From a virus, in the IMG/VR virus record IMGVR_UViG_3300031603_000013, positions 1-36,001 of that record: 36,001 bases of DNA; one strand, 5' to 3'. Of the stretch, positions 21,286 through 21,645 are shown piece after piece (the first letter of the stretch is position 1; the number at the start of each line of letters is the position of its first letter). The position numbers and the translations under genes were made by a program. Under the pieces are notes generated by a model, which was not told where the DNA came from, searched no databases, and worked only from the letters and a program-made list of their open reading frames with translations.

Positions 21286-21645
21286 GGGAACGCACCGGTA
21301 TCGACTGGGCGATGAAGATTGAATGTGCAAGGCGAAGGGCAGCGTGGCTTCGTAAAAACGCTGAAATGATAATTGCTAACGATAACTCGGAGTACTCTTA
21401 CGCACAAGCTGCATAATTGCGAGGTGGCCAACTACCTTGATACCCAAAATTGGCTGGATGTTTTACCGCATTGAGATAAAAATGGTTGCTAAATGGTTCC
21501 CTGGCTCGCCAGGTGGGTCCCAGTGTCTAGGACGGGACGGGTGTTTTATAGGCAGACTTGCCAGTTGAGAAGAACTGGATAACCTTGTGAATGACATGAA
21601 ATTGAGGCGCGTAGGACTCGGGTTCGACTCCCGACGTTTCCACCA
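21286..21645 (+). ncRNA. ssrA: tmRNA (ssrA), ~360 nt; tag reading frame 21375..21416 encodes ANDNSEYSYAQAA-stop
   Basis: 5' GGGAACG pairs with 3' CGTTTCC + A + CCA. The T-arm is TCGGG-TTCGACT-CCCGA. GGTATCGAC, GCTTCGTAAAAACGCTGAAA and the resume/tag region GCTAACGATAAC...GCTGCATAA align with E. coli ssrA as recalled. Confidence 0.75.

Follow-up and report, generated by a model that had tools for sequence, protein, structure and literature searches.

A complete one-piece tmRNA gene on a contig very likely from a large marine phage, near an RF1-like release-factor gene with a predicted +1 frameshift

The transfer-messenger RNA (tmRNA) of Escherichia coli, SsrA, encodes the peptide tag ANDENYALAA, and tmRNA is also encoded by cluster C mycobacteriophages such as Bxz1. 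The spread of such genes among phages has been surveyed: 402 of 18,146 phage genomes (given as 2.3%) carry one, only 2.5% of the one-piece phage tmRNAs are marine, and the OM43 phage Melnitz and the pelagimyophages have a two-piece tmRNA (PMC9004378). Huge phages have in addition been reported with tmRNA, SmpB and the release factors RF1 and RF2 (PMC7162821). Here we describe a tmRNA gene in IMG/VR virus record IMGVR_UViG_3300031603_000013, positions 1 to 36,001 (the window, by which we mean the whole 36-kb stretch that was analysed), a contig from a metagenome assembly (Logan SRR8862232; ENA ERZ27316312, where it is 53.6 kb long). An initial annotation, made from the letters of this DNA, had proposed the tmRNA and had added that a few phage tmRNAs are known, a remark that the survey count of 402 overtakes.

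The window contains a complete tmRNA gene at positions 21286-21645 on the plus strand, and the match lies far beyond what chance would produce. ARAGORN calls a one-piece gene, 360 nt long and with its 3' CCA encoded, and reads the tag ANDNSEYSYAQAA*, with its stop, from gene positions 90-131. The Rfam model RF00023 matches the same interval over its full length (model positions 1-374 of 374) with 113.8 bits and an E value of 5.7e-44, well above the gathering score of 47 bits. The initial annotation had named ARAGORN and an Infernal search with RF00023 as the way to check its proposal, and both were positive at these positions. We also considered a permuted, two-piece tmRNA and rejected it: the scores for model RF04321, 29.9 and 25.8 bits, stay below its gathering score of 47, and ARAGORN reports a standard gene.

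The anatomy of the molecule agrees with the full tmRNA organisation that the initial annotation had described. The 5' strand of the acceptor stem, GGGAACG (21286..21292), has its partner CGUUUCC at 21635-21641, giving 7 bp that include the G3:U wobble, and this G3:U70 pair is the identity pair of alanyl-tRNA synthetase (AlaRS). The T-arm, placed by the Rfam alignment at 21618..21634, consists of UCGGG, the loop UUCGACU and CCCGA, and the tmRNA ends with the discriminator A and CCA at 21642-21645. The D-analog GGUAUCGAC is likewise present. The tag frame, GCU...GCA UAA, occupies 21375..21416, with the resume codon GCU at 21375 and the stop codon UAA at 21414-21416, and encodes ANDNSEYSYAQAA according to ARAGORN. 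Just before the resume codon lies the first pseudoknot, PK1 (21332..21363), which we read from the sequence as gene positions 47-52 paired with 63-68 and 55-59 paired with 74-78; its 3' strand, GGCUUCGUAAAAACGCUGAAA, is the motif that had been noted upstream of the tag. The frame-setting element U85-A86 (21370-21371) carries the same numbering as in E. coli. In the region of PK2 to PK4, 3' of the tag, the Rfam alignment has low posterior probabilities. PK2 and PK3 (21421..21487) were tentatively assigned by hand from the sequence, PK2 pairing gene positions 136-140 with 149-153 and 141-146 with 165-170, and PK3 pairing 172-175 with 184-187 and 179-183 with 198-202. Two further helices in the 3' part of the body (21517..21578) pair positions 232-236 with 249-253 and, as a hairpin, 276-281 with 288-293.

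The same gene is found in related viral contigs, namely L166, L167/L257, L252 and L263. A tag-pattern scan of IMG/VR showed that L166 (28.6 kb) and L167 (Ga0233429_1000026, IMGVR_UViG_3300022902_000004; 318,267 bp) share the 360-nt tmRNA with an identical tag. The two contigs keep the gene order of the window, with nucleotide identities of 76-87%. A second scan, of JGI and Tara data, added L263, a Tara scaffold whose tmRNA has 6 differences and the identical tag, and L252, whose tag ANDNSEHSYAQAA is a Y7H variant. The same scan recovered a wider clade with the tags ANDNSEIFYAQAA, ANDNSIVSYAQAA, ANDNVELNYAQAA, ANDNVEFDYAQAA and ANDNFAFDYAQAA, and a scan with the T-arm added 16 more viral tmRNAs with tags that are mostly ANDNV.FDYALAA. 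When the tags ANDNSEYSYAQAA, ANDNSEHSYAQAA, ANDNSEIFYAQAA, ANDNVELNYAQAA, ANDNVEFDYAQAA, ANDNVEFSYAVAA and ANDNV.FDYALAA are compared, positions 1-4, 9-10 and 12-13 are fixed and positions 5-8 vary, and this conservation spans a clade whose tmRNAs share only about 69% identity. Fixed ends around a drifting middle are the outcome expected from selection on contacts with adaptors and proteases.

In the acceptor stem and T-stem, all 12 of 12 pairs are paired in every one of 7 distinct variants, and 6 of them have changed on both sides, a combination of pairing and covariation that none of 500 shuffles reached. Compensatory changes in the T-stem are CCCGG/CCGGG in L166 and GAGGG/CCCUC in L252. The G:U at acceptor pair 3 is invariant (7 of 7 variants, and 15 of 15 sequences in our alignment A1 of viral tmRNAs) while its neighbouring pairs covary. 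Eight helices scored over the 15 viral tmRNAs of A1 have 78.6% of their cells paired; sliding the partners out of register lowers this to 40-47%. The first stem of PK1 is 89% paired over these 15 tmRNAs, with changes on both sides in 5 of its 6 pairs, and A86, A87, G90 and C91 are invariant. In the second stem of PK2, all 6 pairs have changed on both sides in A1, with only 63% of cells paired. The second stem of PK3 is better in L252 than in the window (U.U to G:C and G.U to G:C), pair 232/253 goes from G:C to A:U in L252, and pair 278/291 goes from A:U to G:C in L166 and L263. The helix substitutions that we checked in L252 and L263 (278/291, 232/253, 333-334 with 348-349, and 179/202) are all compensatory or improve a pair.

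The level of conservation along the gene points the same way. The core of the tmRNA (gene positions 35-316) is 98.6% identical to L166 and L167, whereas the flanking DNA is 76-87% identical, and among relatives the tmRNA is kept while its downstream neighbour genes are swapped or lost. Because the stems are paired and compensated, the core is conserved and the contact positions of the tag are fixed, the tmRNA is best read from these alignments as a working RNA under purifying and compensatory selection, not as a relic.

One part of the gene departs from this picture of conservation. The tRNA-like domain (gene positions 1-34 and 317-360) is only about 70% identical to that of L166 and L167, with all stems and G3:U70 retained, and of the 27 differences from the window it holds 23 (L166:13004-13363; L167:2964-3323, the lineage of the 318-kb contig). 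It is thus the fastest-changing part of these two tmRNAs, the opposite of the usual pattern of tmRNA conservation. Recombination, host adaptation and escape from a nuclease are candidate causes.

Signals for expression are found on both sides of the gene. A consensus scan placed a sigma-70-like promoter candidate, TGAACA-16 nt-TATACT, at 21208..21235 (+), about 50 nt 5' of the mature end; the number of sigma-70-like sites in the region is itself at chance level. Both hexamers are kept upstream of the tmRNA in L167, L252, L263 and the more distant L254, with a different spacer. Between the promoter and the mature 5' end, alignment A5 shows a leader hairpin, GGUGGUGAACCGCUACC (21245..21261, +), whose stem, as judged by eye, is maintained by double changes in L167 (GGCGAUGAAACGUCGCU), in L263 (GGUGAUGAAACAUCACC) and also in L254; it may be an element for precursor processing or stability. 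A permissive Rfam scan gave no riboswitch or other Rfam element upstream of the tmRNA. On the other side, a NUDIX hydrolase gene (21662..22075, +; Pfam NUDIX, E 5e-15) starts 16 nt past the tmRNA 3' end. It follows the tmRNA also in L166, L167 and L263 (88% amino-acid identity) and is absent in L252. With so short a gap and no plus-strand terminator between the two, the tmRNA is probably co-transcribed with the NUDIX gene and probably cut from a longer transcript.

Taking these features together, we judge, at a probability of roughly 80%, that this gene encodes a functional one-piece tmRNA that performs ordinary trans-translation with the AlaRS, SmpB, EF-Tu and proteases of the host. By this account the conserved sigma-70-like promoter would drive a precursor that also contains the downstream NUDIX gene, and the RNA would be trimmed to its encoded CCA end by host RNase P and 3' nucleases. 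Host AlaRS would charge it with alanine by way of G3:U70 and the A discriminator, and host SmpB and EF-Tu would bring it to ribosomes that have stalled on messages that are broken or lack a stop. Translation would then restart at the GCU at 21375, append (A)ANDNSEYSYAQAA and stop at the UAA, freeing the ribosome, so that the product of a non-stop message would bear ...AANDNSEYSYAQAA. The tag, with its ANDN head and Y-A-x-A-A tail, is predicted to send the stalled peptide to ClpXP-type proteolysis in the host. The likely benefit to the phage is that ribosomes would not be lost to it when RNA is being cut up by nucleases of host or phage, or by RNases of abortive infection, and such recycling would fit the genes that surround the tmRNA.

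These genes form an island of RNA repair and translation functions. Besides the tmRNA, the window has four tRNAs by ARAGORN (with tRNA genes at 391-941 and 4324-4400), an Rnl2-type RNA ligase (9354-10247), an AAA_33/zeta-type kinase (31190-31939), a calcineurin-like metallophosphatase (32676-33422), a 575-aa enzyme of the CCA-adding/poly(A) polymerase family (28807-30534) and a Ro60/TROVE protein with a vWA domain (17755-19095; Pfam TROVE 2e-14, phrog_850 1e-51). The island fits the RNA-repair and ribosome-rescue toolkit that Iyer et al. described for jumbo phages, in which tmRNA is not mentioned (PMC7824862). Its end-healing and sealing genes resemble the T4 tRNA-repair toolkit of the Pnkp/Rnl style, and a second ligase-like open reading frame (ORF) lies upstream of the window (L002:7900-8559). 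The Ro60 gene, present in the window and in L252, is absent from the same position in L166, an insertion or a deletion. Its homologs (about 50% identity) occur on 20 unrelated viral contigs, none of which is syntenic or carries a tmRNA, so we regard Ro60 as an independent insertion; no Y-RNA-like Rfam match was found near it at E values up to 1.

The rest of the gene content makes it very likely, as far as sequence can tell, that the window is DNA of a large or jumbo phage, marine and uncultured. Its genes are dense and co-oriented, with matches to PHROG families. They include a GH25 endolysin with a peptidoglycan-binding domain, homing endonucleases of the HNH and GIY-YIG/NUMOD3 types, and an NAD salvage pair consisting of NAMPT, with best matches in jumbo phages, and an NMNAT-NUDIX protein. 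Its syntenic relatives include Tara Oceans scaffolds and viral contigs from IMG/VR, the longest of 318 kb. Among 50,697 catalogued phage records, neither the tmRNA (blastn) nor 24 kb of the window (megablast) found a match, and the search thus yielded no cultured relative.

Several other genes of the window deserve mention. An 868-aa protein (1412-4018) has a shoulder domain of the major vault protein (3e-20) and a Vault_3 repeat, matches SPFH/Band 7 weakly and gave no PHROG or NCBIfam match; a vault-like protein flanked by tRNA genes inside a phage RNA-metabolism island is odd. At 16350-17360 there is a short (336 aa) PurA-like adenylosuccinate synthetase that falls under the NCBIfam cutoffs for both PurA and PurZ; we rejected PurZ as its identity at 135.6 bits against a cutoff of 300. 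In L166 (9426-11407) the first 16 codons of this gene lie about 930 bp from the remainder, pointing to an inserted element or to a duplication. A gene of the GMP reductase/IMPDH family is found at 10249-11280. Close to the tmRNA, the ORF at 20555-21178 is the lone clear minus-strand gene among the ORFs that we take as genes. It encodes 207 aa with no family match, and a search with it found no relatives. Compared with L166, L167, L252 and L263, it is an extra insert of about 620 bp, between a HAD/5'-nucleotidase-like gene and the tmRNA promoter. Finally, ARAGORN calls an amber-suppressor-type 'tRNA-Pyl (cta)' on several other viral contigs that carry tmRNA or Ro60 (L007:8025-8101, L038:6786-6860 and L271:4610-4686), a hint that some of these phages recode a stop codon; the window has no such tRNA.

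About 1 kb downstream of the tmRNA is a release-factor gene, which the initial annotation had called PrfH-like. Combining tblastn with translation, we place a 218-aa homolog of RF1 that lacks domain 1 at 22632-23289 (+), read through a +1 frameshift. Its start codon, ATG at 22632, overlaps the stop of the preceding ORF, after AAGGAAAGGA. Frame A (22632-22730) runs for 33 codons to a CUU (22728-22730) that is followed by UGA, the shift site being CUU UGA G (22728-22734), and the +1 frame, frame B (22732-23289), resumes at GAG 22732. P0083, a homolog that needs no shift, can be aligned with the joined protein over its whole length, junction included (...YAKLAARRGVELELVE... against ...YAKLCIRNHL/ECEIIH...), and homologs of 165-218 aa show that the frame is conserved further upstream. 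Given this upstream homology and the frameshift, which the initial annotation had missed, we discarded the model of a 131-aa ORF that holds only the GGQ region (22894-23289). This ORF is the sole part of the gene in the ORF list, and the metagenome gene caller made no call for it at all.

The shift site is not peculiar to the window. The arrangement CGGAAC-NNN-CUU-UGA occurs in three independent contigs (L169-L171), and a published 485-kb huge phage, LR745208.1, carries the site CGGAGGGGUCUUUGAC. We found the release factor on 252 IMG/VR contigs, many of them 175-618 kb long, and examined 80 loci. About 59 of these have the frameshift cassette, with CUU UGA in 43, CUU UAG in 13 and CUU UAA in 3, and the CUU-stop sites are mostly preceded by a Shine-Dalgarno (SD)-like CGGAGGGG and followed by C. 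The copy in the window has a weak SD-like element and is four codons (EGGx) short at the tip of alpha-5; it may be drifting towards loss.

As to the family, the protein carries PPT and GGQ motifs and retains the Q and HTST residues conserved in RF1. RF1 models match it with 183-198 bits over model positions 109-317 of 347, and in a search of the PDB the E value was 4e-42 for RF1, about 1e-25 for RF2 and 4e-13 for PrfH. The PrfH assignment therefore does not stand: against TIGR03072 the 218-aa protein scores 88.3 bits and its homologs 81-94, far below the equivalog cutoff of 166.65, and no ORF of more than 300 aa in the window has a Pfam match to RtcB, the ligases present being of the Rnl2/ATP-dependent type. 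What is shared with PrfH is the class-I architecture without domain 1 and the GGQ domain (P0083 spans PrfH model positions 2-197 of 200), but not membership of the family. ArfB was likewise rejected, since NF006718 gives 34.8-37 bits against a cutoff of 100 and matches only the region of the GGQ motif. By its motifs and model scores, then, the neighbouring factor is RF1-like, without domain 1, and is apparently made via a +1 frameshift of the prfB type.

The likeness to the cassette of prfB, the gene of RF2, is close: an SD-like GGAGG stands a short spacer ahead of CUU, the in-frame stop comes next, with C after it in most cases, and reading goes on in the +1 frame (for the mechanism in prfB, see PMC12421855). 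The two differ in that the present family is RF1-like and that its in-frame stop can be UGA, UAG or UAA. Autoregulation by a match between the stop and the PxT motif was rejected, because the type of the in-frame stop does not covary with that motif; more probably, the shift site reads general termination capacity rather than strict self-recognition. A 2016 review by Atkins et al. regarded an RF1/UAG counterpart of the prfB device as unknown (PMC5009743), and in the literature that we searched we found no description of a frameshifted, short RF1-like family. Apart from the tmRNA finding, this family is the most novel item in the neighbourhood. It is a widespread huge-phage family (252 IMG/VR contigs) that is systematically mis-annotated, in that gene callers either cut the protein of a frameshifted gene short or give it a junk N-terminus, and add a stray ORF of about 36 aa.

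Is the factor linked to the tmRNA? The initial annotation had taken their coexistence as a sign of deliberate control of ribosome rescue. The coexistence does recur in other viral contigs. Among the 80 loci, a tmRNA lies within 10 kb of the release-factor gene at 4, and in two of these the genes are adjacent (about 10 nt apart in L192 and about 430 nt in L179). In L170, which a separate protein look-up added and which is not among the 80, only 19 nt separate the end of the tmRNA from the start of the release-factor gene downstream. It is not conserved even in the closest relatives, however: in L167 the slot downstream of the tmRNA holds the NUDIX gene and a homing endonuclease, in L252 only the last 30 release-factor codons follow the tmRNA, and what is left in L254 and L256 is a remnant of 39-64 codons. 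Such remnants beside a retained tmRNA indicate that the factor was ancestrally near the tmRNA in this clade and was lost repeatedly. tRNAs are present at 38 of the 80 loci, 577 in total, so the release factor looks like cargo of tRNA islands. Obligatory linkage is ruled out by the count of 4 in 80 and by the losses in close relatives; the evidence is suggestive of a linkage that is recurrent and facultative. Because the linkage is not conserved, the step from coexistence to deliberate control stays conjectural.

A stronger form of this idea is that the tmRNA, with its alphaproteobacterial-style degron, and the frameshift-gated RF1-like factor make up a phage-run module for rescue and termination. 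We consider this doubtful. If it were true, synthesis of the factor would depend on slow termination at the CUU-stop site, and the phage would thereby sense failing host quality control and replace it. The rebuilding of the tRNA-like domain in the sister lineage would then be an adaptation to the SmpB, AlaRS or RNase P of another host or, alternatively, an escape from a nuclease that targets tRNA-like RNAs.

Some of our results weigh against ordinary trans-translation by a phage tmRNA. The nested minimum-free-energy fold of the tmRNA is no better than that of shuffled sequences (z = -0.72), a result that lends no support, as is expected because the RNA is pseudoknotted. Neither the plus-strand ORFs of at least 114 aa in the window nor the precomputed Pfam calls for the 8.6 kb upstream include SmpB (PF01668), so dependence on host SmpB is an assumption. 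The antepenultimate residue of the tag, a predicted degron, is Q and not the usual L. These last two points would also suit a working tmRNA that redirects host quality control, whether by competing for SmpB, by using a different degron (Y-A-Q-A-A) or by acting jointly with the RF1-like factor: tags end in QAA in the clade of the window and in LAA or VAA in sister viral clades, and the tmRNA lies less than 0.5 kb from the short release-factor gene in L170, L192 and L179, as well as about 1 kb from it in the window. We nevertheless think redirection unlikely, for QAA, VAA and LAA are all among natural bacterial tag endings (YAVAA, YAIAA and YAQAA in our scan), the release-factor gene is missing or a remnant beside the same tmRNA in L167, L252, L254 and L256, and proximity at the examined loci is as rare as noted above.

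Two further readings concern the origin of the gene. The tmRNA could be a passenger, a copy of host ssrA captured by recombination (for example at an ssrA attachment site) and now functionless or decaying. ssrA is a frequent site of prophage integration, fragments of it occur in phages (PMC9004378), and the neighbourhood of our tmRNA is a fast-changing accessory slot. A passenger, however, would hardly be full length rather than a 3' fragment, keep a core so much more alike than its flanks, which are down to about 82-87% identity, show compensatory changes in its stems with G3:U70 invariant, conserve the degron contact positions across the clade, and be retained as adjacent genes are lost; moreover, no integrase is among the window ORFs scanned with Pfam. 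We hold this origin to be very unlikely. Alternatively, the contig could be bacterial, a chromosome or a prophage junction, and the tmRNA the cell's own ssrA. In keeping with this, and again at odds with our preferred account, the 36-kb window has no capsid, portal or terminase gene, that is, no virion structural gene, and many of its ORFs are unannotated, so that the case for a phage is made by gene content and by the related viral contigs. It is just this content that makes a bacterial source barely credible: both flanks carry dense, co-oriented genes of phage type (endolysin, homing endonucleases, the tRNA cluster, NAD salvage), the scanned ORFs include neither smpB nor an integrase, and the syntenic relatives, up to 318 kb in length, are themselves catalogued as viral. 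The bacterial tmRNAs that share the tag pattern are also of another build. At least 116 of them are among the matches listed in our bacterial scan, all are permuted, two-piece and alphaproteobacterial, and none is one-piece with the tag layout of the window. This mismatch counts against a bacterial contig, and it also sits awkwardly with the reading that we prefer, ordinary trans-translation by a phage-encoded one-piece tmRNA. Two short contigs of metagenome-assembled genomes that match the alphaproteobacterial-style pattern are assigned to unlikely taxa, L058 to Candidatus Actinomarina and L113 to Kaiserbacteria; L058 has a permuted tmRNA with a duplicated tag, ANDNFAVAANDNFAVQYAQAA. Both are probably mis-binned phage or alphaproteobacterial DNA.

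Set beside known systems, the tmRNA of the window shares with bacterial one-piece SsrA, as in E. coli, the acceptor stem with G3:U70, the T-arm, the encoded CCA and the D-analog, as well as PK1 before an alanine resume codon, a tag that ends in ...AA before UAA, and, as tentatively assigned, further pseudoknots. It differs from E. coli SsrA in its tag, which has 13 residues and ends in YAQAA, and in its place on a viral contig where no neighbouring smpB was found, and it differs from bacterial SsrA in its apparent co-transcription with a NUDIX gene. The two-piece tags of alphaproteobacteria (Rhizobiaceae ANDNNAKEYALAA, Caulobacteraceae ANDNFAEEYAIAA) have the same 13-residue layout of A-N-D-N, four variable residues and Y-A-x-A-A, but their tmRNAs are circularly permuted whereas the RNA described here is in one piece. 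This likeness may reflect the specificity of host proteases and adaptors, or convergence. A one-piece build combined with such a tag is an unusual trait of this marine tmRNA, as is the rebuilt tRNA-like domain of the sister lineage.

Among phage tmRNAs, that of Melnitz offers the clearest contrast, as the window gene is one-piece and non-permuted and, in the permissive Rfam scan, has no upstream glutamine riboswitch. With known phage tmRNAs in general it has much in common: they too are complete genes in large genomes of lytic type, from marine or aquatic sources, beside tRNAs and other translation cargo, and the role proposed for them is to sustain the hijacked translation machinery. The relatives collected here define a marine viral clade of one-piece tmRNAs, with tags of the form ANDN-x4-YA[QLV]AA, that could help to link viruses to hosts and could serve tests of why phages bring their own trans-translation RNA. 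Because phage tmRNAs are already documented, the tmRNA of the window adds an example to an established set.

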